From assembly GCA_977020255.1 (NCBI GenBank), contig CDROCS010001054.1, forward strand, positions 496,001 to 560,000: 64,000 bases of DNA, in the 5' to 3' direction. The DNA comes from Obrimoposthia wandeli. Lineage: Eukaryota. The translations under genes were made by a program, and so were the position numbers. The notes below the pieces were generated by a model. That model made no database searches. It was not told where the DNA came from and was given only the letters and a program-made list of their open reading frames with translations. Shown piece after piece: positions 157 to 36,236 of this stretch; within the stretch, counting starts at the first letter, position 1, and every line of letters starts with the position of its first letter.

Positions 157-251
157 AGTAGGTGGATGTGTCCGGTCTAATCCACACCCCCTCCCCCTAC
201 TGTCCTTTAAAACCGTGCATGTCTGTGGAGTGAAATTTCGTGTAGGTGTGT
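157..251 (+). repeat. Left terminal inverted repeat of Polinton A
   Basis: ~95 bp matching the reverse complement of 15256-15351 with a few mismatches. Confidence 0.95.
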
Positions 252-568
252 AGAAAATCTTCCTACCCCCCTCCCAAACACTCAAAAAAATAATTAACTC
301 CATATAACACCCTTTAAATTTAAAAATCTCATAATGCTCCCAAAATTTTGATTAAGGTCCTGAGAGGCCGTAAAATTGGCCAAAGCGTGCCCTCCGGGCC
401 CGCGGTGGATCAACGAGTAAAAGATACAGTCAGGATTCGATAGAGAATTGGGAAGACTGTACTCCCAGGCTGAACACATAAGCCAATCGTCCGGCAACTT
501 CAGCAGTAGCAGCAAGGAGATCCAATCTCTTCGACAATTTTGAGGCGGCAATCAAATGCCCCTGGAAA

Positions 569-1917
569 TTGATCCCACTGTCTCAACCGGAGATAATACT
601 GGCACCAGACTCAGACGAGGAGCTGTTTACTGATGACGTTCCGTCGGATGGGGAGGAGGAATGGATACAGCCAAGTATCGGAGCCCCAGGAGCCAACGAG
701 TCCATGGTTGCAGAAATGGATGAAGATGAGTGGCATCTGTTCACCGACGAATGGGATGGTCTCACTCCCTCTACAACTCCGACTCCGATACCCAACAATG
801 CAGTGCCTGATCCATTCAGAAGGCCACAATCTCCGATACGTCCTGTTAGGAGAATAAAGGTGACGAATGAGGTTAGACATCATTTATTTAAAATGTTTTT
901 TACTTTTATTTTCAGAAACTGCAACTGGATTTGGCACCGTCAGTGACCACGATTGAGAGGCTGATTGAACCGCAGTACTTGGCGAGTCAATGTAGCCAGG
1001 ATGATCCCAGGAGTGAGCAGAGATACCTACCGACTCCAGCTAAATTTGAGGTATATTATTATAAATTAGTAAATTTATTTAATTATTCAAATAGGAAGCT
1101 GAATTGGTGGATGAAATTTGGGAGGAGGCAACTCGGAGACTACCCGTCGATAGGAAGCAAGCGGCGATTAAGAAACCTCGACGCCACCGTGTCAAAACCA
1201 ATACGGTCCATCGGAAGAAGGCCAAGTTGGTGAAACAGGCTAATCTGCCCGTCATCGAGGTAAATTATTTATATGTTTAAATTTTATTAATGTTTTTTTG
1301 TTGCAGGAACCAATACAATTAACTGAGGAGACATGGGCCAAAATTTCTCCTTTCCCGCAGAAAAAAAATTATTCTGAGGCGGTGATTGGCCAGCAGGAGA
1401 TTCTCCCATCTCTAGAGGACGACGGTCCAATTTTATACGAGAGGATCCCAGTCTCACCGATCGAGATTAGTCCGCCATCAAGTCAACGACGCCTGCAGGA
1501 GACATCACCGGCTTCTCCTCGTCCAACAACCAGCCAGAACTTGAAGAGGGCCTGGGATGAAGCTGGATTAGACGAATTCCTGACGGAACAGGATACACCG
1601 GCAATGCTTCCAGATTCGCGTGGGCAACAGGATGCCGTCTCACGCCAGCTTCAGCGTGAGAAAGAGGAGAAACAGAAGAAAGCTCCGCGGAAGAGGAAGG
1701 CTACTGCTTCTACGTCGGGGCCATTAACATCGGCTCCAAAACCTGAGGGAAGGACAATTGCTGTACAGCAACCGGTGAAGCCGAAAAAGAAACCAGGCCG
1801 GCCAAAGAAGAAGGAACCAGTACCGCTTTCTCCAATTATACTAAGTCGGAGAGAATACCGGATGATCCCAATGATGACTTCGTAAAAATGTTCAAAAATA
1901 TAATTTACAAAAATTAG
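569..1917 (+). pseudogene. Polinton gene 1: 4-exon acidic/Pro-rich disordered protein (~400 aa) with basic C-terminal part; start uncertain
   Basis: Phase-0 GT-AG introns at 872-915, 1051-1094 and 1260-1306 join ORFs 569, 931, an unlisted 55-codon open exon (1095-1259) and ORF 1298 in frame. A probable -1 frameshift near 1840 hides the C-terminus DDPNDDFVKMFKNIIYKN*, which is conserved in copy C. Confidence 0.8.
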
Positions 1918-2209
1918 TTTTTTGTGTTGTCTTTTTATTATTATTTATTTTAGAATTTAGTAATATTAAAATATCCTCCTTAAGTTTATTAAAATAACAA
2001 GATTAAAAATAAAGTTAACTTATTCGAATGTGATTGGATTATTAAGTAATAATTTAAATTTTTTAGGATTAAATATAAATGCAATGATTAGTTATATATT
2101 TATTAAACTTTCCTTTGATAAATATATTTTAATTGCTTGTGATTGGATTAAAAATATCTTAAATTTATATATATAGGTTCAAATTTATTAACATCTTCAT
2201 AATTAAAAA

Positions 2210-2569
2210 ATGGAATTTATTAAATTGCAAAGTTTGGTGACGAAGATCGAGGCAAACATAAGAATAAATGAGAAGAAAGGAGACTTACGAAAGAGGATCC
2301 TCAACCAGAATTTATATACTGCTGTCGCGACCGAGTGGAATCGTCGGGTGGAGATTCAGGACAGGCGGCTAGCAGAACGACGTCGGCTTGTGGAGTGAAA
2401 CAAGAAAATCGAAATGGAAAAAAGGAAGGTGGAGGAAAAAAGAAGAGAAGAGACGGAGGATGTTCGGCGAGCAGCAAGAAAGCGAATCCTCCAGATTAAA
2501 CCGGAAGAGGGTCCTTCCACAAAAAAATTAATTTTATTGATTACTTTGTCTTTATTCATTATGTTATAA
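2210..2569 (+). pseudogene. Polinton charged coiled-coil protein with one premature stop
   Basis: ORF 2210-2398 continues in frame past TGA (NKKIEMEKRKVEEKRREE...). A homologous relic lies at ~54260-54420. Confidence 0.65.
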
Positions 2570-2615
2570 AATTGTCTAAATATAAACAAATTTAAATATA
2601 AAGTTTTTTTGTAAA

Positions 2616-2838
2616 ATGGATAATAAAAATTGGAATAAATTATACATAAAATTATCTCCGGATTTAAAGGAAGATTATAAAAAAAATTACTTTTCAGAAA
2701 ATGATAGTACGGATACCATTGGATATAAAATATGTAATTTAATTTCGAAATATTTAGGTATGTTTACATTTAATATAATTAATTTTAATATTCATAGGAG
2801 AATTGACAATATATACCAATCTTAACATGAAAGACTGA
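2616..2838 (+). CDS. Small Polinton hypothetical protein, 2 exons
   Basis: Phase-1 intron at 2758-2797 (GTATGT...CATAG) gives ...KYLGELTIYTNLNMKD*. A relic (MGDKIN.NKL) lies at ~54630. Confidence 0.55.
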
Positions 2839-2924
2839 ATCCTGACTACCTCGTTATTTTAATAAATTTTTGATTAACAGTTTTTCGTTATAAACAACGG
2901 GATTTGCTACAAATTTGGGTAATT

Positions 2925-3412
2925 ATGCAGGAATATATCATAGATTTTGAGGCTTTCATTAACAAAAATGGGGATTATATTATAAAAGAATTATGTATTA
3001 TGGATGTATGCGACGTTTTCAATCCTTTGCATTTCATATTTCATATAGATATCCCATTTAAAAGTTTAGATTATAAGAAAAAATTTACTAATTTATATCT
3101 AACTAAATATTTCCATTTATTAAAATGGAAAGAAGGACATAAGGCTTTTTGTGAAATATGTATTTTCGATACTATGAAATCTAATTTTGATATTGAAAAT
3201 GGATTTTTTTATGATTTAGATGAAATGGATGGCAAAAAATATAAGACTTAAAAAAATATTTTCCTAAATTGAGGTTGAATACTTTAAATATGTCACGTGA
3301 TCATCTATTAAAAATTCCACAAAATATTTGCTGTCCATATCGTAATCATGGTGACCATTGCGCATATAAAAAATGTTTAAGTCTTTCTTATTATTACTTG
3401 ACATGTAGATAA
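2925..3412 (+). pseudogene. DEDD-like 3'-5' exonuclease-fold protein with C-terminal Cys/His cluster
   Basis: N-terminal IIDFEAF...IIKEL resembles ExoI DxE. After a -1 frameshift at ~3248 the frame continues ...ICCPYRNHGDHCAYKKC...TCR*. The same C-terminus is seen in copy C at ~55050-55250. Confidence 0.6.
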
Positions 3413-3419
3413 ACAATTA

Positions 3420-3660
3420 TTCTAATTGGAGGAATTCATTATTAAAATTTTACAATTATTTACAAATAAGCCTTTTGATTGGAGGAATAAAATTATTTTT
3501 CAACCTATAATAGATAAACAATCCTTCTCTTTAATTGGAGGAATAAAATTATTTTTTTCAACCAATAACAGATAAACAATCTTTCTCATTGGAGGAATAA
3601 ATTCAATTTTTTAATCCAATTGGAAAAGAGCATGTGTGCATAAATTTTAGTATATAAGCA
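3420..3660 (+). promoter_or_regulatory. Putative pPolB promoter: four ATTGGAGGAAT (inverted CCAAT) repeats plus TATA box
   Basis: ATTGGAGGAAT at 3425, 3478, 3534 and 3588; CCAATTGG at 3616; TTAGTATATAAG at 3647-3658; ATG at 3699. Confidence 0.65.
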
Positions 3661-3698
3661 AACACTTTCTTCATTTAAATCCCCGACAATTTGAAATA

Positions 3699-6600
3699 AT
3701 GCCTATGGTAAGAATCTATATTTATTATTTCCTTATTAATATTTATTATTTCAGATTACGTGTAACCTATTCCCTGCGTATTGTGGTGCTTCGGCACCGC
3801 ATAGAGGAGAGACCTGCATGGAGACAATGTCTGCATACTATCGGACAAAGTCTCGCGGGCTTCACTTCTTCGTCTGCCCCTTCTGCAGAACAATGGAGGA
3901 GAAGGAGTTTCGAGACTTCTTCAGTGAACATCGAGCTCACCTATCGTGTTTCACGGCCAACAATAAGAAGAGGGATATCGTCCAATTGGTGCGCGATTCG
4001 CAGGTCGCTCCAGCTCCACCTCCAATTCCAGTTGCAGTCGATCAACCCTTTTACGGTCCTGCCATTGGTCCTTCTCTCCCGGCTCCTGATTCTGCTGCTG
4101 CCCCATCCACTCAAATGTCTAACAATGAGTGGATGAACGACATCTCCGAAGAAGATTTTGAGGAGTTGGCACCAGCAACCCAATTCTCAAACAATGACTG
4201 GATGCGAAATATCAACCAGTCAGATTTCGAGATGGAGCAGCCTCAATGGAGCGACAACTCTGGTTGGAGACCATCGAGGAATCTGATTTCGTCGAGATGT
4301 CGGACGACAGCTGGATGGATTCCATCAATGAAGAGGACTTCATTCCAGCTCAACTTGGATTGCCTTCATTAGGTATTTTTTATTATTATTTTTAAATTAT
4401 ATATTTTATTTTTTATTATATATATTTTATTTTTATTTTTTATTCAGGAAATACCCTGATACAGCCGTCATCAGATAGGACAGCTATGCCTCCCCCATCT
4501 CGAGTGCCTACGTCGATGTTAGCACGCCTTAGAGGTAATAATTTTTAAAAATATATTTATTTTTTAATATATTTATTTCAGCAGCACTAACCTCTACAAC
4601 AGCCGCTTCTTCATAGACAAGGTCAGCTTCAAATGCAACCTCTACAACTGCCACTGTCTTATCAACATCTGCAGCACCTGCTACAGTAGCCCCTTCAACA
4701 TCAGCTACGATTGTCTCAACTATTAATATAAATAGTTGTCTTCCCGTTCAATTAGGGGGAGGTTCGTCAGCGACAAACGGAAGAAAGAGGCGAGGCCAAT
4801 TTCTTAATAAGGTCACACCCAAAAAACGTAGAGAAAACGGTGCTACTATAGAGTATCACCTAAATAATAAATATGTTATAGTTAAGGTGCCATTAGGAAA
4901 TGAAATTTTATTAAACGTAGGTGTAGATTCAAATATTGAAAATCTTTTAAAATCAGAAGTGACTAAATTAGGACAGGCTAAGGTTCTATTTTGCGCAACA
5001 GTGCAGTTTAAAAATGTCAATGAGGAAACTAAAACTTGGGTAATTTCACATAAAGCAACTGTTTTTTATGATAATTTTGTAACTGAAATTGGAAGAAACC
5101 TGGATGAAAAAATTGCTAATTATAGCGAGTTAAGTAGTGGATGGACTCTAGTTAGAATTCACGATGTTAGCTTTGTTCTAACAAAGTTCACTGACATGAT
5201 ATATCTTTCGGGGAGTTCATACATTCCTTCACCTAGATCTCTTCAACTTTCACGTTCCATTGTTAACGTACAAAACAGTGATAACCTTTGCTTTCTGTAT
5301 AGTGTGTTGGCCATCCTCAAAAGGGATGTAATTACTGAGCATAGAGAGCGTGTCAGTAAATATACCCCTTTTTAAATGAATTGCAGTATCATGGAATAGA
5401 TTTTCCTGTTAAATTAACTGCGATATCAAGATTTGAACATCTTAATAACTTGAGTATTAATGTATTCAAATATAATACTGATATCCCAGTTAATGTAACA
5501 GATGAAGAAATTTTTAAAAATCCTTTTGTAGATGTAATTTATAGGAGCAAAATGAGGGGACTCAGGTCAACTTAATTTTGCTCGAACAGAATAATAAATT
5601 CCATTATGCTACAATTCCCAGTTTAGATCGTCTTCTAAATTTAGATAATGGAGCCTTACCGGTTAGGATAAGGTGTAAGTGGTATCATAGATGTTTGCAT
5701 GGGTTCCGATCCGAGCTCTCTTACAGCAAACATCTGACATTATTTTCACTGAATCCTGATGACAATACGCTATATAGCATGCCTAAGGATAAGGATTTAA
5801 AATTCAGGGATTGGGCAAAATGCATACCCGTGGAATTCAGGGTGTATGCAGATTTTGAGTCAATTTTAGCATTGCACGACCAGTATGAGAGTATTCACCT
5901 ACCGGCTTCGGCAGGACTACTATTCTTAGGCCCCAATAATACCCAGTATCATAAATTTTCCGGTCCAAATTGTATTTTAGATTTTATGTTAAAATTAGAG
6001 GAATTAGAAACAACAATTGTCAAACCGTGGTATGATCTCAATGCTCATCAAGCAATGATCATGACAGGCATAGACTGGGTTAATTTTAATTCTTGTAGAT
6101 TATGTTATTTGTGTGGAACCCGGTCTAAGTTAGTCAGAGATCACGATCATGTTACGGGGCGATACTTGGGAGCGGCGTGCAACCTTTGTAACCTTGGCCG
6201 TCGTCTCCCTAAAAAACCACACATTCCCATCGTGTTTCATAACCTCAAAGGATATGATTTGCATCATATACTTAAATACGCGTTGGGTACATTAAGCTCT
6301 TGGGAAATTTCATGTATACCTCAAACTTCAGATAAATATTTATCTTTAACTGCATATACTGAATTCTGCAGTTTAAGATTCATAGATTCTCTGCAGTTTT
6401 TGAGCGGGTCTTTAAAATATTTAACGGCATCTTTAAATGCATGGCCAATTACACAGTCAGTGTTCCCAGCTTCGGTTAACGATAAGGGGATTTTTCCGTA
6501 TAAATTTGCGAAAACATTTGCAGATTTAGAAAATACAACTGAAATCCCACCCATAACTGAATTTTAGGGTGTAAGTCTTCAAGACTATAATGAGGCCCGT

Positions 6601-8128
6601 ACATTTTGGGTGAATAATTGTCGAAATCTTCTCGAATATATGCTTTATTATATAAAGTTAGACATTTATCTTTTAGCTGATGTTTTTGAGTCCTTTCGTG
6701 TAAAGTCTTGAGCAGAAGATGGGCTAGATCCCATGCATTTCTTTAGTTTACCTGATCTTTCATGGGCAACAGCAATAAAAACTCTTAAAATTAATATCGA
6801 GTTACTGCAAGATCCCGCGATGTATCAAATGTATGATTATAGTATATGCGGTGGAATGACTTTTGTCAACAAACATCATGTTGTCAAAAATCAATCCACG
6901 GAGATTCTGTACATCGATATTAATAATTTGTATGGGTGGGCGCTTACTCAACATCTACCTCATGCCAACTTTAAGTGGGTTTATGATGTGGATCAGTTGA
7001 ATAAGTTGATGACAGATTTGGTTACTATTGATACAGTTTCATCCGACGTCGGCTGAGGTGGACATAAAAATTCCTCCCAATGTGCATGATAAATTAGATG
7101 ATCTTCCAGTAGCGCCTGTTCATCAATGCCCACCTAATTCAAAGGTTAAGAAATTATTGTTAACCCATGAAGACAAGTTGAATTATGTTGTGCATTGGCG
7201 GCTTCTTCAATTCTACTTAAAGTTGGGAGCGAAAGTTACTCGAATTCATCGTGCTATAAGCTTCAGTCAAAACTTTGTGTTTAAAGACTATATTGAGAAG
7301 AATTCAAGAAAACGTAATTTGGCCACTAGCAAATTCGATCGAGATTTTTACAAGTTAAAAAGTAATAGTCTCTTTGGAAAAACTGTAGAGGACTTGCGGA
7401 AACGTATTTGTCTACGGTTTTGCAATGATAAGCGTAAACTAATAACATATACTAGCAAGTACAACTTCAAGCGTAGTTTTACAATTGCAGATGACTTGGT
7501 AGCAGTGTTATTAGGAAAACAGAGTATTTGTCTCGATCGACCGAGTTATATAGGTCAAACGGTTTTAGACATTTCTAAACTCAGAATGTATGAGCTTCAA
7601 TACATAGAATTGGAGAAATACCGACAAGAATTTAATTGTGAGATTAAAATCGCAGCTGGGGACACTGACTCTTTCTTTTTAGAATGTAGGAATGTTAGTT
7701 TAAATAATCAATTATTACCAGCAATGTTTAGGGACAACTTACTAGATACCCATAAATATCCCGCTAACCATCCTCTACACTCTATGAGTTTAAAGGACAT
7801 TATCGGGAAATTTAAGGATGAAAGCGAGGGACAGGTTTCGTATGATGATTGTATTTTCCTACGCCCTAAATGCTACAGTTTACATGCATCTAATAATACA
7901 TGTTCAATGAGAGCAAAGGGTGTGGGAAGAAACAATCTTACACATGAGGCCTACCGGAAAGTTTATGATACTGGGTGTATTGAAAGCGTTGAGCAAACTA
8001 GATTTATTTCAAGAGCCCATCAACTGTATTCCCATAAATCAACAAAACTCGCTTTGAGTAGTAATGACGACAAGCGCTTTTGGGTAGAAAAGAACGCTAG
8101 CCTGGCTTATGGACACTTCAGAATTTAA
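3699..8128 (+). pseudogene. Protein-primed family B DNA polymerase (pPolB), spliced, with N-terminal extension; disrupted
   Basis: Motifs YADFES (ExoI), FHNLKGYD (ExoII), YIDINNLYG (A), KLKSNSLFGK (B), GDTDS (C), RPKCY and KGV; HNH/endonuclease VII-like CYLC..RDHDH..CNLCN insert. Introns at 3708-3754, 4373-4447 and 4535-4581 join the upstream exons in frame with ORF 4887. Stops at 4614, 6565 and ~6708; frameshifts at ~4259, ~5372, ~5552 and ~7054. Confidence 0.95.
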
Positions 8129-8389
8129 ACGGTTTTCATTTTTTGATTTTTTTAGTTTAGTTTTTTAAAATTTTAGATCCCTATGGCACCTAGATTCTAA
8201 CTTATTTGTTATTTCAATACATTTTTAGGATGGACCTTATCTTTGCTGACATATCTCATTGTGATGTTGTGATTAATAAATGTATTAAAAAAAATTGTCT
8301 TATGTCTTTTATTATTTTACCCTTATATTTTTAGAGATTTAAAAAATAATTCAAAATAAAACATTTAAAATTTTTATTTTTATAACACA

Positions 8390-8770
8390 CTAATTGTTTT
8401 GCAACGATAACCATAAAATACATAAATGTCCACAGATTCTCGTCGCAGGATCCTGATATTGTATCTTGTTGTAAAATACTCTTCTTCGTCCTTTTTGAAT
8501 AGTTTAAACAAGTTTGTGTGGATAATACATTGCAAGTGGATCAAATACATGTATTGTCCACTCTCTAACATAAATAGCTATCCAATGTTCTCCTGGTAAA
8601 TTCGAAGTATGAGTATTGATAATGTAACCTCCAGATTGAAAAAATGAAATCATATCAATAGGATAAACTCCATTGAATTTATCACCCAGGACCTTCTCTG
8701 CTGATTCTTTTACTTGTTTTGAACTAAATAAAAATTAATAAATATAAATTTAAAATATGTCTTACTCCAT
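8390..8770 (-). pseudogene. Adenain-like cysteine protease (PRO), 2 exons, one premature stop
   Basis: After removing intron 8724-8765 it reads MDSKQVKES...INTHTSNLPGEHWIAIY...VFDP...*...QYQDPATRICGHLC, with His/Asp/Gln/Cys motifs of Polinton/adenoviral proteases. Confidence 0.88.
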
Positions 8771-8771
8771 T

Positions 8772-9825
8772 CTATAATATGACAGTTCTGTTTTTATTGA
8801 TTTGTATTTCCGAATCAAATACTCCGTAAATAAGCACCGTAGTAGGATGTGTTAAAGCTGCATTGAACTTAATTTCTAGTCGTAAATTTCCATCCTTTGG
8901 TAGTTGGCATTGGTTTATATCAAAGTCTGGTGCCAAAACGAATGTGAAGAACGGGCAGCTACTTTTAAACTCAGTGAAAGGAAGACCATTGTTTATATTT
9001 TTATCTAGTTTACCCAAATTCCGAATAATAGATTGGGTATAAGCCAAAGCATAAGCGTTACCTTCGAAATCTGTTTTATATGTTTCACGATAATCAGTAT
9101 TTCTTGAAAGTGTCACTGAACCTACATTAAGATTGTCAAATTGAGTTGCATCTGTCGTATAATTTCCTAGAAACTTTGCAGTTTTTTGAAAAGAAATTAA
9201 AATGAATTTCGGTAATCTTACATCACCAAAAATTTGATCCTTATTAAAAGCTTGTGTACCCGTACCTAAAGAATAAGATATAAGTTTAGTTTCTCTAATA
9301 GGATAACAAGCATTGTTTTTTTCCATTCCTATATTATGTGCCATTAAAACTGATTGCTCGGTTTTAACTCTTCGAACATACAATTTTGCATCCAAAATAT
9401 CAAGTCTAGGTTTTAAAACGTCCGTGCTTATCAAAGAAAAATTCCATTTATTACGTTTTAAACGAAGATGAACATTAACACCGGGAATTAAATATTTCGG
9501 TTGTTCAAAGAAATTCAATCTCAAAGACCCACACATTTCATAAGCTTTAGAACCTGCAATCCATTCTTTGCGAGTTGCAACAGTTTTATCATAACCAATG
9601 GTTGCCAAATTAGTATTTTGAGTATCAGTACTATAATTCAAAAGACTTTCAATCAAAGCTTTATGAGCATAGGAAGAATTTCCACCTTCAATTTTGACAT
9701 TATTAAGAGTAACAATGCCATCACTAAATAAAGAATTAAATAGATAATTTACAGGTGTTACATCGGCATTTTCATCTAAATTAGTACCATCCCGATTTAA
9801 TACTTTTATTTGAACATACCATTTT
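8772..9825 (-). pseudogene. Major capsid protein (double jelly-roll, PY), N-terminus deleted
   Basis: YVQIKVLNRDG...NSLFSD...YAHKALIESLLNYS...NFFEQPKYLIPGV...FVLAPD...GNLRLEIKF are typical Polinton MCP motifs. The MACAKSEL-type start seen at 30634 is absent here. Confidence 0.9.
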
Positions 9826-10440
9826 TTAATGTTTCACATTTATCCAAATATTCACTACATTCCTTCTGTATTAATTTACAGAAATTCACTTCACTATCTA
9901 TTTTATAATCTTTTGAAAACGTTTTCAGTTCCACTACAGTCTTTGGTCTCGTTTCAACTAACAACACTCTTACTACTCTACAAGGAACATTTTTAAACAT
10001 TTTAGATGAGACAATATCAGATCTCTTCATACCTACTACATGTCCACTATCAAAACCGAATTAAAGAGCTTCTTTTCCAGATTCGAATATAATTTGAATA
10101 GGTTGAACATGTTTTGATCGATTTTTAAATCTGACTTTGTTTTTTTCATATATTACTTTCACCTCTTTATCTATACAATTGTAAAAGAATTTTCCTTTAC
10201 TATCAAACCCGATCACAACTTTAGTTGTTTTTCATGATCAACTTCTTTTGTAAACGAAATATGTGAGTTTTTTCTGATAGTAATTGGAGAATAATAAAAA
10301 GAAAATTCGGTTAAAGCCGCTTCCCATTCTCCTTGGAGATTTATAGGATTTTCCCAATCGATAATAAAGCTACTAGCGTAATTATCTGGTTGAGTCTTCG
10401 GACATCCGTTACTAGGTAAAACCATATACATAGACTTCAT
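9806..10440 (-). pseudogene. Minor capsid protein/penton (PX), disrupted and C-terminally truncated
   Basis: N-terminus MVLPSN..PDN..SSF...PINLQGEWEAALTEF is typical of Polinton pentons. Its ATG overlaps the integrase stop (ATGA). Confidence 0.8.
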
Positions 10441-11463
10441 ATTATTTTAGATGCTGATATCCAAGTTGGGTCTGAATAACCATGCCATTTAACAAAGTAT
10501 TGTTTATGTTTACCTGTACCCTTAGATTTTAATATTTTTTGAATACGGAAAACGCTAAGTTTATTTGATATTACTTGTAGTTCTTGCTCGTAAATTATTA
10601 TCAGTATTATTATTGTCAGCATCTTTAATAGTATACATTATTGGATTACTCTTTTGATCAATTTTACTTATACAAAATATTTCATCGCTCCAATTCTGAT
10701 CAAAGTTTTTAATAAATGGAGTAGAGCTAATTTTCGAAATTCGAACATATTCGTTTTTCTTATATTTAGCTTTTCTAATTTTTTCTTTTTTATTCCTGTT
10801 CATCCAAATGTCCATAGAGTTTTTATTAGTAACATCAACAGGTCTCATTCCCTTGAGACCTCTATGTTCAGAGTGATTATATGCATGTATTATTTTAGGC
10901 AAAACTTGGATCCATTTTTTATTTCCTTCTTTTGTGAAATACTTTTTTATTCGATCTCTTAGAGTACGATTAAATCTTTCTACTACTGCTGCTTTGTATT
11001 GTGAAAACACAGAGTAATGATTTATATTATTTTGTTTAAATAATGATTGAACTTGCTTATTATAAAATTATTTTCCTAAATCAGTTTGCACATTTTGTGG
11101 AATGTCCTCTTTTAATATTTCTTTAATGGCTTCAAGCATAGCTATTGAAGACTTTGCTTTAACTGAAATTGAACGAGCAAACCTGCTAAATACATCAATA
11201 CATGTTAAAATATATCGATATCCCTTATTAATGGAAGAATATGGGATCATCTCTATCAAAACCATTTGCCATAAATTATTAGGACCGCTGGTTTTGTAAG
11301 CTCTAGTTGGAAACCTTCTTCTCATCGGTTTGTTCAGACTGTAGGCTAACTGGTTGCTCAGCCATTTCTGCGTTTTATTGTATTTTTGTTTTGTTCTTTT
11401 TGCTAATTTTGAAACTCCTGTGTAGCCAATTGGATCTTTTGGATTGAACCATATCTTCTCCAT
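10437..11463 (-). pseudogene. Retroviral-like (c-)integrase with C-terminal chromodomain
   Basis: IDVFSRF, QTDLGK, VERFNRTL and chromodomain QYFVKWHGY. Nonsense codon at 11068 (GAA in copy D); frameshift near 10590; the first catalytic Asp is replaced (WQMVL). Confidence 0.95.
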
Positions 11464-11549
11464 TACAACAATTTAAATTGAAAGAAAATTTAAGTTTAGT
11501 TAAAGAAGGGCTAGCACCCATATCTTTAGCTGATTTTAGAAATAATTGT

Positions 11550-11879
11550 TTATGAACGTGTCGCAGCTATAATACTACTGATAATTGAAGCAACAACTGG
11601 AATAACAGCCCCTATGAAACCACCATTCTGTTTAAGAATAATATTTCGTTTCTCTTTTTTACTTTTTACATTAGCAATATCTAGAAGAGTTTTTCTATAT
11701 TTCTTTAATATATTTTTCCGATTTCCAACTTTTACTCGACCCAAAACTATATTATACAAAACTTCCAATAAATCATCTACAACAAAGGATGGAAATGCTT
11801 TAAGAATAATCATTCTCTTATTAGAAGAGGCTTTGACTAAAGCTTTAAAATAGGGTATGCTTCTTTGTATTTTCTTCAT
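11550..11879 (-). CDS. Conserved basic Polinton protein (PW-like) ending in QNGG plus an amphipathic helix
   Basis: Intact 109 aa, basic, ending LKQNGGFIGAVIPVVASIISSIIAATRS. A near-identical intact copy lies at 19124-19453. Confidence 0.8.
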   Translation of the reverse strand: MKKIQRSIPYFKALVKASSNKRMIILKAFPSFVVDDLLEVLYNIVLGRVKVGNRKNILKKYRKTLLDIANVKSKKEKRNIILKQNGGFIGAVIPVVASIISSIIAATRS

Positions 11880-11910
11880 TTTAATAAAAAAGGTTCAATT
11901 TAAATATTGT

Positions 11911-12052
11911 TTATATTCGAAGCCATTTAAGTTTTTTTTTATTTTAAACTACAGATTTGATTAATTTATTCACTTCTTTTATTCTTAATGATTCTTTTTT
12001 TTGATTTCTTAGATTTTACTTTACGTTTTACTATCAACTTTGTAAAAGGCAT
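11911..12052 (-). pseudogene. Short very basic peptide (~46-48 aa), frameshifted
   Basis: Consensus of A and D (18950-19095): MPFTKLIVK(HK)RKVKSKKSKKRIVKKKEVNKLIKSVVRNKRKLKWLRI*. Each copy has different lesions. Confidence 0.5.
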
Positions 12053-12059
12053 TGCGAAT

Positions 12060-12707
12060 TTATTTTTTATAATTGTTCTCTATTTGTTTATAAACAGTTA
12101 CTCCCTTAGAATTAAATATGTCTGTTAAAACACGTAAATCATCTGGGCAAGCTTGTGTAAAGTCAATAAATATATACCCATGTGCTTGTTTAGCAGCATC
12201 GTGGAATGAATCAACTAGAAAGTTCTTATTTTGAGGAAATGCCTGTCTGGCCACAAAATCAACAACTGTTTGATCTCTAGGATTTTTAAATAAAACTAAG
12301 TAATGTACATTAAGATTTCTTGTTCTATGGTGACCTCCTTGGGGAAACAGATTTTGAGTGATAAATATAACTGTTACTTCACGATGTCTTGCAATCTTTG
12401 TAGATAAATTATTAAAGTCCGATTCCTTGTTAGCCTCCTCATACAAATCATCAATTATTATTACATCTTCTTTTTTCAATCTTTCACACCAATTTGCATC
12501 AAATCCTTCAATAAATTTTATTCCCTTCAACTTGCAAACTTCTGTTTTGGTTAACCCGCTTTCCCCTCCTCCGCCATGATGCCAATAAATATTTTTGAAA
12601 CTAGATTTGAAAAGAGATTCATTTTGCAACAATTTACAGACGAAATGTGTCTTTCCACTTCCACTAGGGCCAAATATTTGAAATACAGCATTATTATTTA
12701 GCTCCAT
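12060..12707 (-). CDS. A32/FtsK-HerA-like packaging ATPase
   Basis: Walker A GPSGSGKT, Walker B VIIIDD, then ARH...FITQNLF and YLVLFKNPRD; intact 215 aa. Confidence 0.95.
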   Translation of the reverse strand: MELNNNAVFQIFGPSGSGKTHFVCKLLQNESLFKSSFKNIYWHHGGGGESGLTKTEVCKLKGIKFIEGFDANWCERLKKEDVIIIDDLYEEANKESDFNNLSTKIARHREVTVIFITQNLFPQGGHHRTRNLNVHYLVLFKNPRDQTVVDFVARQAFPQNKNFLVDSFHDAAKQAHGYIFIDFTQACPDDLRVLTDIFNSKGVTVYKQIENNYKK

Positions 12708-12744
12708 TGCATATACTCTTTCATTTTTAATATTGTTTATATTA

Positions 12745-13017
12745 TCATAGAAGTTTCCTTATTGAAATGTACAATGTTAGAGCTATTGTAGATGAAATAC
12801 AAAAATTAATTAATGAATATTTGGCTATAATTTTATTTATTTGTGTACGATTTCTAAATTCTCGAATAACGTGTGATCTAACCAATATTTCAATGTTATC
12901 TCTTGTTATATCATTATTTTTTAATTCTGATAAAATTTCTTTACCCCTAATTTTTCCAGAAAATATTTCGTCGGCAAGCCGATCCACTTCATTGTCTCTA
13001 TTTATAGTATTATTCAT
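12745..13017 (-). CDS. Hypothetical 90-aa protein with hydrophobic C-terminus
   Basis: Intact ORF co-oriented between the TBP-like gene and the ATPase; C-terminus SLINFCISSTIALTLYISI. Confidence 0.5.
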   Translation of the reverse strand: MNNTINRDNEVDRLADEIFSGKIRGKEILSELKNNDITRDNIEILVRSHVIREFRNRTQINKIIAKYSLINFCISSTIALTLYISIRKLL

Positions 13018-13045
13018 TCAAAACAATAAGTTTAAACGGGTTTGT

Positions 13046-13545
13046 TTATAGAAAAGATAACAAGATGTAATAAGATATATTTTCTAAAATCAAATCAACA
13101 ATGTTTGGATAATCAAAAATTTTCAATCCCAATATCATAACTTTACCACTAGAAAATATATTTACACATAGCGGTTTAAACTTCAAATAACTGAGAGCAG
13201 GAAAAATTTCTGGTTCAAACATGCATTTTTCTTTCATTTTCTCTGCAGTTTTAAAAAGATTTATCTGTTTCCCGAGATTAGCCGAAATCGTGATTGATTG
13301 TATTGCAGTGATTTGAATTCCAAATGGTAAATTGAACCCAAGCATTGGTATTTTGCATCCCATAACACGACAATTTCCTAAAGAATTCAATATGAAAATA
13401 AAATAAAAAACTAACCTGTAGGAAAAATAACAACTGTGAAATTGTCAAACTTTTCTACATATTGTCTCGGCTTCCATTCATTGAATGGTAAGTACGAAAC
13501 ATCATCTTCTGTTCTACCTTTATAATTTATATTTACGAGTTTCAT
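13046..13545 (-). CDS. TATA-binding-protein (TBP)-like protein, 2 exons, 153 aa
   Basis: Exons 13545-13416 and 13377-13046 (38-nt phase-1 intron). Repeat 1: KLVNINYKG...VVIFPTGNCRVMGCK. Repeat 2: IQSITISANLGKQINL...FEPEIFPALSY...IFSSGKVMILGLK, matching the TBP signature YEPELFPGL...IFxSGKxVxTGAK. Confidence 0.85.
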
Positions 13546-13639
13546 TAGACTGAAATTGTATTCTGTAAAATCTTCTTTATATATGTCTGAACCTGCTTTT
13601 TATTGCACGTTTCTTGTAATTATCTTGCAAACCTATTAT

Positions 13640-13792
13640 AATTGGATGATATATTTCTTCCAATCAATTTTGATTTTAATATAGATTTAGTCCAATCAAA
13701 TTCAATGCTTTAGTTATATTAACCAATGAGATTCATGTCTTTGTTAGAAATTAGTATAAAAGAATGCGCCATTGGAGGACAAATCACAGTAA
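13640..13792. promoter_or_regulatory. Putative bidirectional promoter between the TBP-like gene and the plus-strand paralog pair
   Basis: Several CCAAT motifs at 13650-13730, TTAGTATAAAAG at 13751 and ATTGGAGGA at 13771. The TATA motif is conserved at 34752. Confidence 0.55.
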
Positions 13793-14269
13793 ATGCATTC
13801 ATATCAAAGACAATTATCAACGATGGACAATAGCCAAAGGGTATTAAGCGATGACGAAGAAATGTTTGAAGAATCGGATAAGGATATGTATGAAGAAGTG
13901 AAACAATATTTCAAATACAAAGTCAGATTCTTGAAGAAGGCTCAACTGATTGCTTTAGTAAATCCTGTGACAATTGAAAGAAGAAAGTTCAGCTACTATC
14001 TATCAGGTATTCAAAAACCTGATTTTCAATATCTTAAACAGAAAGTTGAAAAGGCAGTTCCAAATTTTACTTTCAATAAGAACAAATTTTATATCCGAGG
14101 AGCTGATGAAGCATTTCTAGATGACTATGGAAGATATGTTGATATTGATGCGTTTCCGAAAAAGAAGCAATGGACTCTAACAATTCGACTTTATGGTTAC
14201 AAGAAAGATGAAATGGGAACAAAGTTGCCTATGTGAAAAATTGAACGTGCTCATATTTCTATGTTTTAA
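13793..14269 (+). pseudogene. Hypothetical protein, paralog 1 (premature TGA at 14234)
   Basis: The related copy at ~35240 has TGG at this codon. The restored end is WTLTIRLYGY...LPMWKIERAHISMF. Confidence 0.7.
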
Positions 14270-14404
14270 CTTTTTGTGTGTAATAAATTGTAATCGGTTT
14301 TACTATGTTTCTTTCATTTAATAATCAGTTTTATTTGTATCTTATTTGTATCTTATATGTATTTTTTTATAAACATTGTTTTTAATCTGTTTCCTTATTT
14401 TAGA

Positions 14405-14818
14405 ATGGATAAGAGATGTGTAGCAAATTTTTATTATCCAGAAAGAATTTCAAAAGGAAAACTATGTAATATATTAAAGAGGCATCAAATTATACGAGTT
14501 ATGAATCCTGTGAAAATATCAAAAGTGCAGAATATATATCTCATCGAAATTTTAACAACAACTGATATTGATCAATTGAAAAATATTTTGGGATTTTACA
14601 TTCCTGATTATGTATATGAAGGAAATTGTTTCCAGCTTGAAACTGATCCCGGTCTGGATTTTAAAGATGATCTAGGATATTTGATTGCTCCAATTCTAGA
14701 TGAAGAACTATGGAATATCTCAATACGTCTCAATGGATATTTTGCTGATGACTGGAAAATGCAGCCTCTCTGGACTTTGAGTGAAGCCAATATGTTTAAT
14801 AAATATTTTGAAAAATAA
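14405..14818 (+). CDS. Hypothetical protein, paralog 2
   Basis: Intact; C-terminal WNISIRLNGY...QPLWTLSEANMF resembles paralog 1. A homolog lies at 35466-35870. Confidence 0.7.
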   Translation: MDKRCVANFYYPERISKGKLCNILKRHQIIRVMNPVKISKVQNIYLIEILTTTDIDQLKNILGFYIPDYVYEGNCFQLETDPGLDFKDDLGYLIAPILDEELWNISIRLNGYFADDWKMQPLWTLSEANMFNKYFEK

Positions 14819-15059
14819 TTTTGTCTCGTATTTTGTTTTTTACTCCTCTAAATTATATAGATCTGACCGATTTTTGTCCTCTTAATTCTAAAACTGACAT
14901 AGATATTTAACATGTAGTAATTTATTAATCTAAAATCTTTCTTAAAAATAGTAGTAATATTTGAAATCTCGTCTGCGAAAAGCCGCCGGGGTCAATATGG
15001 ATTCTCGTGGTCTTCTCTAACCACTTTTGAGATTCGTGGTAAATTTTTTTTTAAATGTG

Positions 15060-15310
15060 GTGGGTGGGGAGGGGGTACCCCCCTCCCTTCCCCCTTTGGG
15101 TGGGATGAAGACACACATACACGAAATTTCACTCCACACACATGCACGAAATTTCAACACACACACATGTTCGGTTTTAAAGGACAGTAGGGGGGGTACC
15201 CCCTTCCTTCCCCCTTTGGGTGGAATGGAGACACACATACACGAAATTTCACTCCACACACCTACACGAAATTTCACTCCACACACATGCACGGTTTTAA
15301 AGGACAGTGG
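15060..15310. repeat. Subterminal ~120-bp tandem duplication with CACGAAATTTCACTCCACACAC sub-repeats and GGGGGTACCCCC palindromes
   Basis: Two units each contain GGGGTACCCC...CCCCTTTGGGTGG...CACGAAATTTCA...GGTTTTAAAGGACAGT. Confidence 0.85.
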
Positions 15311-15351
15311 AGGGAGGGGGGTGTGGATTAGACCGGACACTTCCACCTACT
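15256..15351 (-). repeat. Right terminal inverted repeat of Polinton A
   Basis: Reverse complement of 157-251, followed by TSD TCTGTA. Confidence 0.95.
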
Positions 15352-15357
15352 TCTGTA

Positions 15358-18214: not shown

Positions 18215-18384
18215 AGTAAGTGGATATGTTCGGTCCAATCCACCCCTTCCCCTCCCTCGGGGGCTACCACTGTCCTTTAAACCCGTGTATGTGTGTGGAG
18301 TGAAATATTTGATAAAAAGCAACAAAAAGGGGGGCCTCCCACCAAAAAAAACGCCCCTTTGGGCGCCCCGGCTGCACCCCTCTC

Positions 18385-18935
18385 ATTTGAGCAAAATAAA
18401 TATCTTTTCAATTCTAGTTTCAAAAATATTTATTGGCATCATGATGGAGGAGGAGAAAGTGGATTAACCAAAACAGAGGTTTGCAAGTTGAAGGGAATAA
18501 AATTTATTGAAGGATTTGATGCAAATTGGTGTGAAAGATTGAAAAAAGAAGATGTAATAATAATTGATGATTTGTATGAGGAGGCTAACAAGGAATCGGA
18601 CTTTAATAATTTATCTACAAAGATTGCAAGACATCGTGAAGTAATAGTTATATTTATCACTCAAAATCTTTTTCACCAAGGAGGTCATCATAGAACAAGA
18701 AATATTAAAGTACATTACTTAGTTTTATTTAAAAATCTTAAAGATCAAACAGTTGTAGATTTCATAGCCAGACAGGCATTTCCACGAAATAAGAACTTTC
18801 TAGAACTGCTAAACAAGCACATAGGTATATATTTATTGACTTTACACAAGCGTACACAGATGATTTACGTGTTTTAACAGACATATTTAATTCTAAGTGA
18901 GTAACTGTTTATAAACAAATAGAGAACAATTATAA
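18385..18935 (+). pseudogene. Packaging ATPase of copy D, Walker A deleted
   Basis: VIIIDD and FITQNLF are present; the N-terminus is replaced by subterminal DNA. Confidence 0.9.
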
Positions 18936-19123
18936 AAACCAAATTTGCAATGCCTTTTAAAAGTTGATAGTGAAACATAAACGTAAAGTAAAATCTAAGA
19001 AATGAAAAAAAAGAATCGTTAAGAAAAAAGAAGTGAATAAATTAATCAAATCTGTAGTTAGAAATAAAAGAAAACTTAAATGGCTTCGAATATAAACAAT
19101 ATTCAAAGTGAACTTTTTTTAAA

Positions 19124-19453
19124 ATGAAGAAAATACAAAGTAGCATACCCTATTTTAAAGCTTTAGTCAAAGCCTCTTCTAATAAGAGAATGATTATTCT
19201 TAAAGCATTTCCATCCTTTGTTGTAGATGATTTATTGGAAGTTTTGTATAATATAGTTTTGGGTCGAGTAAAAGTTGGAAATCGGAAAAATATATTAAAG
19301 AAATATAGAAAAACTCTTCTAGATATTGCTAATGTAAAAAGTAAAAAAGAGAAACGAAATATTATTCTTAAACAGAATGGTGGTTTCATAGGGGCTGTTA
19401 TTCCAGTTGTTGCTTCAATTATCAGTAGTATTATAGCTGCGACACGTTCATAA
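19124..19453 (+). CDS. PW-like basic protein of copy D
   Basis: One amino-acid difference from A 11550-11879. Confidence 0.8.
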   Translation: MKKIQSSIPYFKALVKASSNKRMIILKAFPSFVVDDLLEVLYNIVLGRVKVGNRKNILKKYRKTLLDIANVKSKKEKRNIILKQNGGFIGAVIPVVASIISSIIAATRS

Positions 19454-19539
19454 ACAATTATTTCTAAAATCAGCTAAAGATATGGGTGCTAGCCCTTCTT
19501 TACCTAAACTTAAATTTTCTTTCTATTCAAATTGTTGTA

Positions 19540-20567
19540 ATGGAGAAGATATGGTTCAATCCAAAAGATCCAATTGGCTACACAGGAGTTTCAAAATTAG
19601 CAAAAAGAACAAAACAAAAATACAATAAAACGCAGAAATGGCTGAGCAACCAGTTAGCCTACAGTCTGAACAAACCGATGAGAAGAAGGTTTCCAACTAG
19701 AGCTTACAAAACCAGCGGTCCTAATAATTTATGGCAAATGGTTTTGATAGAGATGATCCCATATTCTTCCATTAATAAGGGATAATGATATATTTTAACA
19801 TGTATTGATGTATTTAGCAGGTTTGCTTGTGTAATTCCAGTTAAAGCAAAGTCTTCAATAGCTATGCTTGAAGCCATTAAAGAAATATTAAAAGAGGACA
19901 TTCCACAAAATATGCAAACTGATTTAGGAAAAGAATTTTATAATAAGCAAGTTTAATCATTATTTAAACAAAATAATATAAATCACTATTCTGTGTTTTC
20001 ACAGTACAAAGCAGCAGTAGTAGAAAGATTTAATCGTACTTTAAGAGATCGAATAAAAAAGTATTTTACAAAAGAAGGAAATAAAAAATGGATCCAAGTT
20101 TTGCCTAAAATAATACATGCATATAATCACTCTGAACATAGAAGTTTTAAGGGAATGAGACCTGTTGATGTTACTGATAAAAACTCTATGGATATTTGGA
20201 TAGGTAGGAATAAAAAAGAAAATATTAAAAAAGCTAAATATAAGAAAAACGAATATGTTCGAATTTCGAAAATTAGCTCTACTCCATTTATTAAAAACTT
20301 TGATCAGAATTGGAGCGATGAAATATTTTGTATAAGTAAAATTGATCAAAAGAGTAATCCAATAATGTATACTATTAAAGATGCAGACAATAATATCGTT
20401 CACGGTAAATTTACGAGCAAGAACTACAAGTAATATCAAATAAACTTAGCGTTTTCCGTATTCAAAAAATATTAAAATCTAAGGGTACAGGTAAACATAA
20501 ACAATACTTTGTTAAATGGCATGGTTATTCAGATCCAACTTGGATATCAGAATCTAATATAATATGA
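19540..20567 (+). pseudogene. Integrase with chromodomain, copy D
   Basis: Same motifs as in A; stops at ~19783-19788 and ~19954; frameshift at ~20412. Confidence 0.92.
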
Positions 20568-20819
20568 AATCTATGTATATGGTTTTACCTAGTAACGGAT
20601 GCCCGAAGATTCTGCCGTATAATGACGCTAGTAACTTTATTATCGATAAGGAAAATCCTATAAATCTCGAAGGAGATTGGGAAGCACCTATAACATAATT
20701 GTCTTTTTATTATTCTCTAATTACTATCAGAAAATACTCACATATTTCGTTTATAAAATAAATGAATTATGAAAAAACAAAAAAATGTTATGATCGGGTT
20801 TGATAGTAAAGGAAAATTT

Positions 20820-29466: not shown

Positions 29467-29748
29467 ATGGAAAATATACTTGTTATAAAATCTGTAAATA
29501 AACAGAAATTCTATATAAAACAACCTGAAAAATCAAAAAATCAATTTGGTTTCCTGTATAATCAATCAAACTATAAAAATTACTTTGCATCTGATGATAA
29601 TGGTATTTTAACTGCTCAAATAACCATACATCCTCAAAGTGTATCAACAAAATTTGAATATTATCACATCGAAAATAAAATTATCACTTCAAATATCGTG
29701 TTTGACAACGATTTCAATAGTACAGATTTAACTGCATTAGTTAAATAA
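29467..29748 (+). CDS. Hypothetical 93-aa ORF inside element X (possibly part of the penton region)
   Basis: Open ATG ORF just upstream of the penton C-terminal relic; no recognised motif. Confidence 0.3.
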   Translation: MENILVIKSVNKQKFYIKQPEKSKNQFGFLYNQSNYKNYFASDDNGILTAQITIHPQSVSTKFEYYHIENKIITSNIVFDNDFNSTDLTALVK

Positions 29749-33565: not shown

Positions 33566-36236
33566 TGTAGCCTATGAAAGATGTTGAGAACAATATAATT
33601 CAAGGTAAATTTTACGAATAAGAACTTCAAGTAATATCAAATAAACTTAACGTTTACCCTATTCCAAATATTAAAATCTAAGGGTACTGGTAAACATAAA
33701 CAATACTTTGTTAAATGATATGCTTATTCAGATCTTACTTGGATATCAGCATCGAATATAATATGAAATCTTTGTATATGGTTTTACCTAATAACATATG
33801 TCCAAAGACAGCCAAATAAGGATGCTAGTAGCTTTATTATCGATGTGGAAAATCCTACAAATCTTCAAGATTGGGAAGCACCTTTTACAGAATTTTCTTT
33901 TTTATTATTCTCTAATAAATATCAGAAAAACTCACAAACTTACACTGAACTAAATTAAAATTCATAAATATTTATTAACTAAATAAAATTATTACATGTT
34001 TTTTCTACAATATAACAGTTCTATTTTTGTAGATTTTTATTTATGAATCAACTACTCTGTAAATAAGCACTGTAGTAGGATGTGTTTAAGTGGCATTGAA
34101 TTTAATTTCTATGCGTAAACTTCCATCTTTTGGTAGTTGGTATTGATTTATGCCAAGTCTGGCGCCAAAACAAATGTAAAGAATGAACAGTGGCATTTAA
34201 AGTCATTAAAAGAAATACCATCATTTATATTTTTTCTAGTTAGCCCAAATTTCGAATAACAGATTTCAAATAAGCCACGGCATAAGCGTTCCTTTCAAAA
34301 TATATTTTATAGTTTTCGCGATAATAACTATTTCTTGAAGTGTCACTGAACCCACATTTAGATTATCAAACATTTTAAATCTGTCGTATAGGTTAGCAGT
34401 TTTATGAAATTAAATAAAAACGAATTTGAGTAATATCACATTATCAAACTTTTTCACTTATTTTCTCGGATTTCACTCATTGAATGGTAATTATGAAATG
34501 TCATCTTCTATTCTTCCTTTATAATTTATATTTACGAATTTCATTAAACTTAAATTGTTTTATATAAATTCTTCTTTATATATGTATGAACTCGTCATTT
34601 GATGGCATATTTCTTGTAAATATCTTGCAACCTTATTATAATTGGATGCTTGAAAAATAACATATTTTTATCAATCGAATTCAATTTTTTTTAAAAAAAT
34701 TTTAAATGGTTTAGTTATATTAACCAATGCGATTTATGTCTTTGTTACAAATTAGTATAAAAGAATGTGCCATTGACGAACAAATCATTATAAATGCATT
34801 TATATCAAAGGGAATTATCAATGATGGAAGATAGCCAACAAATACTGTGCAATGATAAAGATTTAGAAATATTTGAAGATTCAGATAAGAATATGTATAA
34901 ATAAGTGAAACAATATTTCAAGTACAAAGTCAGATTCTTGAAGAAAGTTCAACTAATTGCTTCAATAAATTTTGTGGCAATTGAAAGAAGAAAGTTTATC
35001 TATTATCTATCAAATATTCCTAAACTATATTTTCAATATGTTAAACCGAAAGTGGAAAAAAACAGTTCCAAGTTTTACATTCAATAAGAACGAATTTTAT
35101 ATCTGAGGAGCTGATGCAGCATCTTTAGATGAATATGGAAGAGACATATATGTTGACGCGTTTCTGAAAAAGAAGCAATGGACTATCACAATTTGGCTTT
35201 ATGGTTACAAGAAGGATGAAATTATAACAAAGCTACCTATGTGGCAAATTGAATGTGCTCATATCCCTATTTCTTTAAACTATTTCTTTTCTTTCATGTT
35301 ATTTTATTTTTAACATGTTTCTTTTATTTGTATATTTCTCCATGTAATAAACTGTAATCAGTTTTAGGGTTTTTAATTCAGTTATTTGGGAAAATATAAA
35401 ATTCATGTTATTTTATATATTTATTTTTATAAACATTGTTTTTTAATCAGTTTCTTTATTTTATAATGGATCCTCTTCTGAGATATGCAAGACATTTTTA
35501 TTTTCCGAAAATAATTTCAAAAAGAAAACCATGTAATATATTAAAGAGGCATCAAAATATACCTGTTATAAATCCTGTGAAATTATCAAAAGTCAAAAAT
35601 AAATATTTATCAAAATTTTAACTACATTTGAAATTGAACAATTCAAAAATATTTTGAGATTTTACATACCTGATTATGTATACGAAGGAAATTCTTTTCA
35701 GCTTGAAACTGATCCCACCCTGGCTTTTAGATACGACCTTTGTTATTTGATTGTTCCACTTTTATACGAAGAAATATGTCTTAATATGGCTTAATGAATA
35801 TTATGATGCTGCCAATAAAAATACAACCTCTTTGGACTTTACATGAAGCTAATATAGTGTTTAATATTTTTATTCAATGTATTAAAATTAATTTTTTCTT
35901 ATATATATATATATATTTTTTTTTTCAAAAAAATATATAAGTCTAACCTACATATTTTTGTCCTTCTAACAGGCATAAAAATGTAGTCATTTATTCATAG
36001 AAAATTATCATTTAAAATTTTGTCTACGATAAGTTGATACTGATAAAGTCAATATAGATTCCTGTCGTTTTCAAAAATTTTTTTTTGAGATTCATCTTTG
36101 TAGGTTGGATGTGAAATTCATATACACATGCATAAAATGTCACTCCATACACAAATGCACGATTTTAAAGTACCGGGTACTCCTTCCCTCCGTAGAGGAG
36201 AAAGGCAAGGGGTGGATTATACCGGACACACCTACT
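33566..36236. mobile_element. Rearranged right arm of a Polinton related to A
   Basis: Integrase 3'/penton 5' (+), MCP 3' (-, ~34010-34430), TBP-like exon 1 relic (-, ~34460-34545), the TATA motif, both paralogs (+, 34794-35870) and a terminus ...GGTGGATTATACCGGACACACCTACT at 36236. Confidence 0.88.

Follow-up and report, generated by a model that had tools for sequence, protein, structure and literature searches.

A TBP-like gene inside a decayed Polinton

The window, a 64,000-nt stretch of the Obrimoposthia wandeli genome, contains a decayed Polinton/Maverick copy with the AG..CT termini, inverted repeats and flanking 6-bp duplication of such an element (Table 1). Matches to PF03175, PF00665 and PF04665 identify Polinton core genes, and these matches are stronger in the homologs carried by L046, a 12.8-kb Polinton stretch with an intronless TBP copy. 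A gene for a short protein resembling the TATA-binding protein (TBP), which we call mini-TBP, comes first in a block that continues with the ATPase, pX, integrase and virion genes. On its other side, in the opposite orientation, are two tandem genes predicted to encode T7 gp2.5-type single-stranded DNA-binding proteins (SSB1 and SSB2). The jelly-roll evidence for the putative capsid protein is weak: a match to a Pfam-confirmed jelly-roll protein has E 0.0036, and the Pfam matches, each seen in one of seven members, have E 0.02-0.04. A PDB sequence search with the putative capsid alignment returned no match. The SSB1 fold is predicted from a model of its homolog in L038 (Z 8.5, rmsd 2.8, 102 aligned), and SSB homologs lie near the TBP gene in 20 loci. 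SSB1 was tested as a transcription partner of mini-TBP and rejected in that role, being instead a predicted SSB. No Pfam match to the TFIIB family was found among the element ORFs scanned, several of which have no family and may include a divergent TFIIB.

Table 1. Features of the element and of an older relic, in window positions (aa, amino acids; nt, nucleotides).
Feature	Position	Strand	Remarks
Polinton/Maverick copy, decayed	157..15351	.	15.2 kb; AG..CT termini; 6-bp target-site duplication 151-156 and 15352-15357
TATAAACA word	2889..2896	+	36 nt before o154 at 2925
o154, conserved ~155-aa gene	2925..3385	+	frameshifted in window; no Pfam match
Protein-primed DNA polymerase B, several pieces	4617..8128	+	endonuclease VII-like insert
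Adenain-type protease gene, remains	8396..8722	-	mapped via L056 homolog, PF00770 E 1.1e-7
Putative major capsid protein, 5' part missing	8772..9818	-	named from size, place and weak jelly-roll matches
rve integrase, broken	10440..11463	-	CATAAACA 91 nt upstream
pX-like core protein	11550..11879	-	weak Adeno_PX match, E 0.019
TATAAACA word	11908..11915	-	36 nt before pX
A32-like packaging ATPase	12060..12707	-	
TATAAACA word	12734..12741	-	34 nt before packaging ATPase
90-aa ORF	12748..13017	-	first gene behind word; no Pfam match
TATAAACA word	13043..13050	-	33 nt before 90-aa ORF; overlaps mini-TBP stop codon
mini-TBP exon 2	13046..13377	-	332 nt (2 bases, 109 codons, stop); last part of first repeat, then whole second repeat including acidic stirrup
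mini-TBP intron, predicted	13378..13415	-	38 nt, GT-AG, phase 1; from homology and end conservation
mini-TBP exon 1	13416..13545	-	130 nt (43 codons and 1 base); strands S1-S4, shortened first repeat
Putative two-way promoter region, mini-TBP/SSB1	13546..13792	.	normal TATA boxes, CCAAT words, initiator-like word
Initiator-like word	13553-13549	-	in two-way promoter region, within the formerly proposed N-terminal extension
TATA box of mini-TBP	13583-13575	-	normal, 38 nt before ATG
TATA box of SSB1	13755-13762	+	normal, 38 nt before ATG
SSB1, predicted T7 gp2.5-type single-stranded DNA-binding protein	13793..14236	+	behind normal TATA box
TATAAACA word	14368..14375	+	37 nt before SSB2
SSB2, SSB1 paralog	14405..14818	+	behind TATAAACA word
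Decayed exon-1 relic, older subfamily copy	34422..34544	-	intron and exon 2 absent

The element family is abundant in the host, with 96-100% identity in 150 of 150 scored matches, which were drawn from 32,180 first-look candidates and are not a copy number. Elsewhere in the window there are an inverted partial second ATPase-pX-integrase block (18281-20776, 92-98% alike), older Polinton debris (~28100-36300 and 52800-56100) and tandem arrays at 21892-22187 and 38293-38747 with periods of 37 nt and ~56 nt. A piggyBac-type transposase (PF13843), hAT-type remnants and a host Snf7 exon were also annotated (45198-46613, 43865-44245, 62495-63808 and 47401-47790).

Joining the two mini-TBP exons gives 153 codons. 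This spliced reading frame around a 38-nt intron was proposed in a preliminary description of the DNA, and homology bears out the anatomy. Exon 2 alone matches Pfam TBP (PF00352) with an E-value of 9.6e-12 and 45 bits, above the curated cut-off of 22.9, and also matches 35 solved TBP sequences. In six intronless metagenome proteins (50-54% identity) a single frame spans both exons, and the start methionine of mini-TBP is shared by four of the six. Among copies of the element chosen by their ATPase, the intron measures 35-41 nt and its ends are kept (GT in 24/24, AG in 22/24). The same codon is interrupted by a different 40-nt GT..AG interval in metagenome locus L052, by a different sequence in the host family L096-L102, and by yet another in a further host element family, where the donor is non-canonical. 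The TBP gene of another host element family is intronless, 47 of the 49 metagenome loci L032-L080 match mini-TBP in one piece, and the canonical TBP of the host has no intron at this site. The intronless homologs, the kept ends of the interval and the same-site split in three other element families therefore support the junction. A two-exon mini-TBP gene inside a Polinton is thus confirmed, with removal of the intron probable from these comparisons.

Other features of the preliminary description fared unequally. The exon-1 relic that it placed at ~34460-34545 is real and lies at 34544-34422 on the minus strand (profile E 1.1e-6). The gene had also been singled out as intact among lesioned neighbours, but 9 of the 24 copies that cover it are free of lesions, and its lesion rate of 2.1 per kb compares with 1.2-3.1 in four neighbouring genes (28 copies chosen by ATPase, 24 covering mini-TBP), so that its intactness is not special. 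A further in-frame N-terminal extension is rejected. This region is open in some older copies, as had been noticed. Of 30 young copies, however, 21 show it in frame, each of them with a stop in it. It has no sign of coding selection (five amino-acid-changing differences vs one silent), and no more than eight residues precede the first conserved asparagine in 185 of 218 homologs. The region holds a TATA box and an initiator-like word, and is best read as the promoter.

Fold, residues and spread of the mini-TBP family

The intronless homolog P0003, which is 52% identical to the window protein, was modelled in its stead. The model (pLDDT 96) has the ten saddle strands and no first-repeat helix (none of four or more residues before residue 84), and all of its 146 residues align with TBP (Z 13.6, rmsd 2.6). 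A Foldseek search of the PDB returned TBP entries as the top 44 matches at E<=0.001 among the matches listed, and viral TBP-like folds are close structural neighbours of the model. The protein is therefore predicted, from this homolog, to form a full TBP saddle. Both halves of the saddle had been recognised from the sequence; this holds for the strands, but both helices of the first half have been cut away.

Residues were counted in 256 hits collected without a motif filter, after 7 of 263 rows had been dropped as canonical-type. Yeast residue numbers were anchored by alignments with canonical TBP, and the mapping is least sure around F99. The acidic second-repeat stirrup, a canonical feature, is present: the TFIIB-contact glutamates are kept in 249/253 (E188) and 230/252 (E186) sequences. 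In cellular TBP these two glutamates contact TFIIB and the basic surface of the first lobe binds TFIIA, Mot1, TAF1 and Brf (PMC7221094, in its accessible part); the TFIIB role of the acidic stirrup residues is also supported in the accessible text of PMC10005294. The second repeat further keeps F190 (252/253), P191 (221/253), F207 (249/251) and K211, and the first repeat keeps N69 (206/218) and F116 (233/234). Three other features of canonical TBP/TRF proteins are absent, namely the H1/H2 helices, the full set of four kinking phenylalanines and the pair of central asparagines. F116, F190 and F207 are retained and the F99 region has proline; N69 is retained and N159 is replaced by serine (219) or threonine (27) in the 253 sequences. 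Besides that of N159, fixed changes on the DNA face comprise V122 to Arg (230/235), T124 to Met (248/251) and L205 to Asn (246/254), along with V161 to Thr or Ser and V71, mostly to Asn. The span from N69 to F116 is ~36 residues vs 47 in canonical TBP, and that from G125 to N159 is ~21 vs 34, which indicates that the first-repeat helices H1 and H2 are gone. Longer relatives retain most of the first-repeat length.

A profile search recovered 568 proteins at E<=1e-5 among 2,947 candidates, and the tail of this set may include cellular TBPs; at E<=1e-30 there were 52 clusters. Family members consist of the saddle only (~145-175 aa). Of 59 metagenome loci, most of which are short, 28 have a match to a further gene of the element described here, and 18 to a core gene. 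Conversely, two of three loci found by ATPase alone carry the TBP gene. The search of other elements called for by the preliminary description thus found that the TBP gene recurs in one Polinton lineage. In the IMG/VR scans we found one giant-virus TBP locus only and no Polinton ATPase or capsid loci, and a search of a phage collection gave no match. Polinton contigs were present inside three bacterial genome bins (L183-L185), where they are probably contaminants. A search of the host genome with a distant capsid returned 29 of 30 loci from the window's own element family. Two canonical TBP genes of the host stand head to head, and the host also has several genes of the TFIIB family and additional, divergent TBP paralogs (L091-L095, L186-L193); the host TFIIB exons recovered are incomplete. 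An LTR retroelement (L135:2-9887 and L136:1-2272) that lies beside one TBP copy carries an IAP (BIR + RING), a Monjiviricetes-type fusion glycoprotein and a dual-specificity phosphatase.

In a quick, unrooted tree (68 rows), the 40 proteins of element type stand apart from the 28 rows of cellular, archaeal and giant-virus origin (one giant-virus TBP only), with an SH-aLRT of 99. The short form is nested in this tree (23 rows, SH-aLRT 96) with longer forms beside it. Across 23 homolog pairs, which are non-independent, dN/dS is 0.11-0.35. For variants common to host copies it is 0.25 (7 vs 7 changes), and a subfamily comparison gave 0.64, but with off-frame controls of 1.51 and 0.47, and is uninformative; for exon 2, copies chosen by an exon-2 protein match were excluded as biased. 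The tree and the homolog pairs indicate that the family is distinct from cellular TBPs and evolves under purifying selection in the Polinton lineage that carries it. Domestication of the window copy by the host was considered and rejected.

A putative promoter word ahead of packaging and virion genes

In the window, TATAAACA sits 33-37 nt ahead of five genes: o154, pX, the ATPase, the 90-aa ORF and SSB2. Mini-TBP and SSB1 are each preceded instead by a normal TATA box at -38 and by CCAAT words. Across loci, the forward word YATAAAC was found at -80..-15 in 36 of 42 de-duplicated windows ahead of ATPase, pX, putative capsid and o154 genes, vs 1.1 expected, for a word picked by eye in the same loci and in windows that are not independent because the elements are related. 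The reversed word was found in none of these 42 windows, and neither was the word at -160..-95. The word of the capsid gene lies inside the preceding ORF, and coding may therefore add to its conservation. Ahead of integrase, penton-like, o118 and protease genes the word is present in 12 of 31 windows. It precedes 1 of 36 TBP genes and 1 of 15 SSB genes, and a normal TATA box was seen in 18 of 34 TBP-gene windows. Exceptions are the ATPase genes of L183 and L184 and the o154 gene of L183, which are without the exact word though these elements have a TBP gene.

The host genome also contains a Polinton lineage that carries jelly-roll capsid, integrase, A32 ATPase, pX and PolB genes and whose pieces were read without a TBP match. 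In this lineage YATAAAC stands before 0 of 27 ORFs in five pieces, and its totals are near chance. The comparison covers one lineage plus the fragment L185, with ends undefined in both; L185 has neither the TBP gene nor the word in its 5.5 kb. From L207:95 to L208:3178, the TBP-less lineage has a phospholipase A2-like domain fused to the integrase, and its genes start after A-rich runs.

At its first base the word has C in 19 of 35 sites of long-form loci, 12 of them belonging to a single locus; in short-form loci it has T in 67 of 107 sites, a difference that we regard as a hint only. Near the end of the ATPase gene (12085-12096) the word is present on both strands, in two overlapping copies. 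In L060 and L063-L069, some TBP genes have no TATA box and share a T-rich word ~45-60 nt upstream as well as an initiator-like word. In a second host Polinton family, the TBP and ATPase genes are separated by an IAP gene (L151:3285-4205) that has the word ahead of it. The o154 gene is behind the word in 8 of 9 elements and its product has an acidic N-terminal pattern, which may resemble that of a DEDD-type exonuclease. The solved TBP complex 1qn3, which has a TATAAAC-type box, is among the Foldseek matches listed for the mini-TBP model.

A candidate late-gene switch and its relation to known systems

Most of the particle-building genes sit behind one altered TATA word, and for this reason the element likely brings its own switch. 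We propose, with a probability of about 65%, that the shortened TBP-fold protein binds YATAAAC and recruits host TFIIB and Pol II, thereby acting as a late-gene switch. Host machinery would first read the mini-TBP and SSB1 genes from their normal TATA/CCAAT promoter, and the host spliceosome would remove the intron, which would mean that the mini-TBP gene is read in the nucleus. Classic crystal structures show the first repeat of TBP lying over the 3' half of the box and the second over the 5' half. By analogy, the intact second repeat of mini-TBP would grip the 5' half of the word and offer its acidic stirrup to TFIIB, and the rebuilt first repeat would read the 3' half, including the C at position 7. 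The TFIIB stirrup contact would then bring host Pol II to the packaging and virion genes. Loss of the first-repeat helices would remove the docking surface of TFIIA, TAF1 and Mot1/BTAF1. TBP and SSB1 would accordingly be early genes and the word-bearing genes late. The preliminary description had left open whether the protein is an element-encoded basal transcription factor or a TBP decoy. That it is a TBP-fold factor encoded by the element, and a member of a family, is supported by the fold, the lineage-wide presence, the purifying selection and the matching promoter word; between its two readings we favour the factor over the decoy.

A decoy would bind TFIIB (or Brf1/Brf2) or occupy host TATA boxes and so damp host transcription, with the word itself being read by host TBP or Forkhead proteins. 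Host-type TBP does tolerate the TATAAAC variant weakly, TATAAACG being used at 27% in plant protoplasts (PMC10005294, in its accessible part). The acidic stirrup is the most conserved surface of mini-TBP, and F99 and N159 are lost. Moreover, ATAAACA matches a Forkhead site. Forkhead sites work on either strand, however, and a decoy would leave the one-strand, fixed-distance placement of the word unexplained, as well as the fixed family-specific residues on the DNA face and the absence of the word from the TBP-less lineage of the same host, so that we consider this reading unlikely. Binding of the word for a purpose other than initiation, such as repressing the genes while the element is integrated or organising the genome for packaging, would suit the position of mini-TBP at the head of the packaging/virion block and beside SSB genes, and repression would likewise predict a fixed core-promoter position. 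In that case the TFIIB-contact residues need not have been retained, and the word lies at TATA distance from gene starts rather than at the termini, which makes such a role rather improbable.

Dependence on a helper, as in a virophage, is a still weaker candidate. The word would then be the promoter of a co-infecting large DNA virus, and mini-TBP would use the viral TFIIB and polymerase; giant viruses own TBP-TFIIB pairs (PMC7221094, in its accessible part), and viral TBP-like folds are structurally close. Against this, transcription by host Pol II in the nucleus is suggested by the spliceosomal-type intron and by the TATA/CCAAT/initiator promoter, the mini-TBP stirrup matches cellular TBP although viral TBPs mostly diverge there (same source), and the family lies apart from the one giant-virus TBP in the quick tree. 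We reject the possibility that the gene is a recently captured host TBP pseudogene, and consider it exceedingly improbable either that it is one or that its exons are not one gene. Most host copies of the gene do decay neutrally, but the closest relatives are Polinton-linked proteins at ~50% identity rather than host TBP. This possibility, which the preliminary description had itself raised, was already largely refuted by the split of 40 element-type from 28 other rows (SH-aLRT 99), the purifying selection among homologs and the absence of an intron at this site in the canonical host TBP.

The late-gene switch would have several consequences. How Polintons time their capsid and packaging genes without an RNA polymerase of their own is a question to which a dedicated TBP and its word would be a concrete, testable answer, and one that bears on whether Polintons are autonomous viruses. 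We rate somewhat above even the chance that a widespread Polinton lineage carries a one-protein late-transcription switch, namely a minimal TBP that has shed the surfaces for host regulators, is tuned to a private TATA variant and plugs into host TFIIB. If true, the lineage would have an autonomous early-to-late cascade, evolved independently of the herpesvirus vTBP, and with it a compact orthogonal pair of TBP and promoter, each of which may co-evolve with the other. It would add a viral late-transcription solution beside the herpesvirus vTBP and the giant-virus TBP-TFIIB pairs, one that keeps the host TFIIB contact. Mini-TBP would also show which parts of TBP can be dropped, and unnamed ORFs of these elements that lie behind the word are candidate late genes.

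The element shares its termini, 6-bp duplication, pPolB, rve integrase, A32 ATPase, adenain and pX genes with the Polintons/Mavericks, adintoviruses and MELD viruses (PMC8502044, in its accessible part). A TBP had been thought undescribed for Polintons, and we found no study of it, but "TBP" is a label in the legend of Fig. 5 of Starrett et al. 2021 (PMC8502044), which presents maps of adintovirus-like elements, and may there denote this family or another. In its accessible text the Starrett preprint lists TBP among homologs of host proteins, and that of the 2021 article contained no account that we could find of TBP distribution, truncation, intron, promoter word or role. Beyond this legend, the literature searched, mostly open-access, yielded no paper on a Polinton TBP family, word or mechanism; subscription and Repbase reports may name the gene. 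Look-up of the terms TBP and TATA in the accessible parts of PMC11296320, 10.1101/2023.08.22.554363, 10.64898/2026.10.13.758929 and 10.64898/2026.06.19.733378 gave no hit. The window adds the shared intron, the TBP-less control from the same host and the residue map.

Like cellular and archaeal TBP (PF00352; PDB 7egb_P, 1cdw, 1ais), mini-TBP has a ten-strand saddle by prediction, a complete second repeat, F116, F190, F207, P191, N69 and the stirrup. It differs in its length of ~150 aa, in lacking H1 and H2, in the replacement of F99 and in the changes at N159, V71, V122, T124 and L205, and the family is only 20-28% identical to solved TBPs. With the TBP-like proteins of giant viruses (Nucleocytoviricota) it shares a predicted TBP fold within a putative double-jelly-roll virus lineage and a first-lobe regulatory surface that is not conserved; those viruses, however, mostly encode TFIIB and their own polymerase and have a divergent stirrup (PMC7221094, in its accessible part), whereas the stirrup of mini-TBP is cellular-like.

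The vTBPs of herpesviruses (KSHV ORF24, EBV BcRF1, HCMV UL87), which serve TATT late promoters, resemble mini-TBP in having a virus-encoded TBP fold, a polar DNA face, an altered TATA word before virion genes and, as proposed here for mini-TBP, the use of host Pol II (PMC12529657, in its accessible part). According to the same source, KSHV ORF24 is a proven viral TBP mimic in which the equivalent of P191 favours T at the first position. The arrangement of an altered TATA word of their own before virion genes is analogous in the Polinton lineage, but the word is a different one, YATAAAC, present in 36/42 windows. KSHV ORF24 is also a large multidomain protein, one of the six that make up its complex; it binds Pol II itself and has none of the TFIIB-contact acidic residues (PMC12529657, in its accessible part), whereas mini-TBP is a bare saddle that has them. 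BcRF1 gave a weak fold match only (E 9.5e-3), which does not establish sequence kinship with mini-TBP. By analogy, mini-TBP most likely works like the beta- and gamma-herpesvirus vTBPs without being a member of that family.
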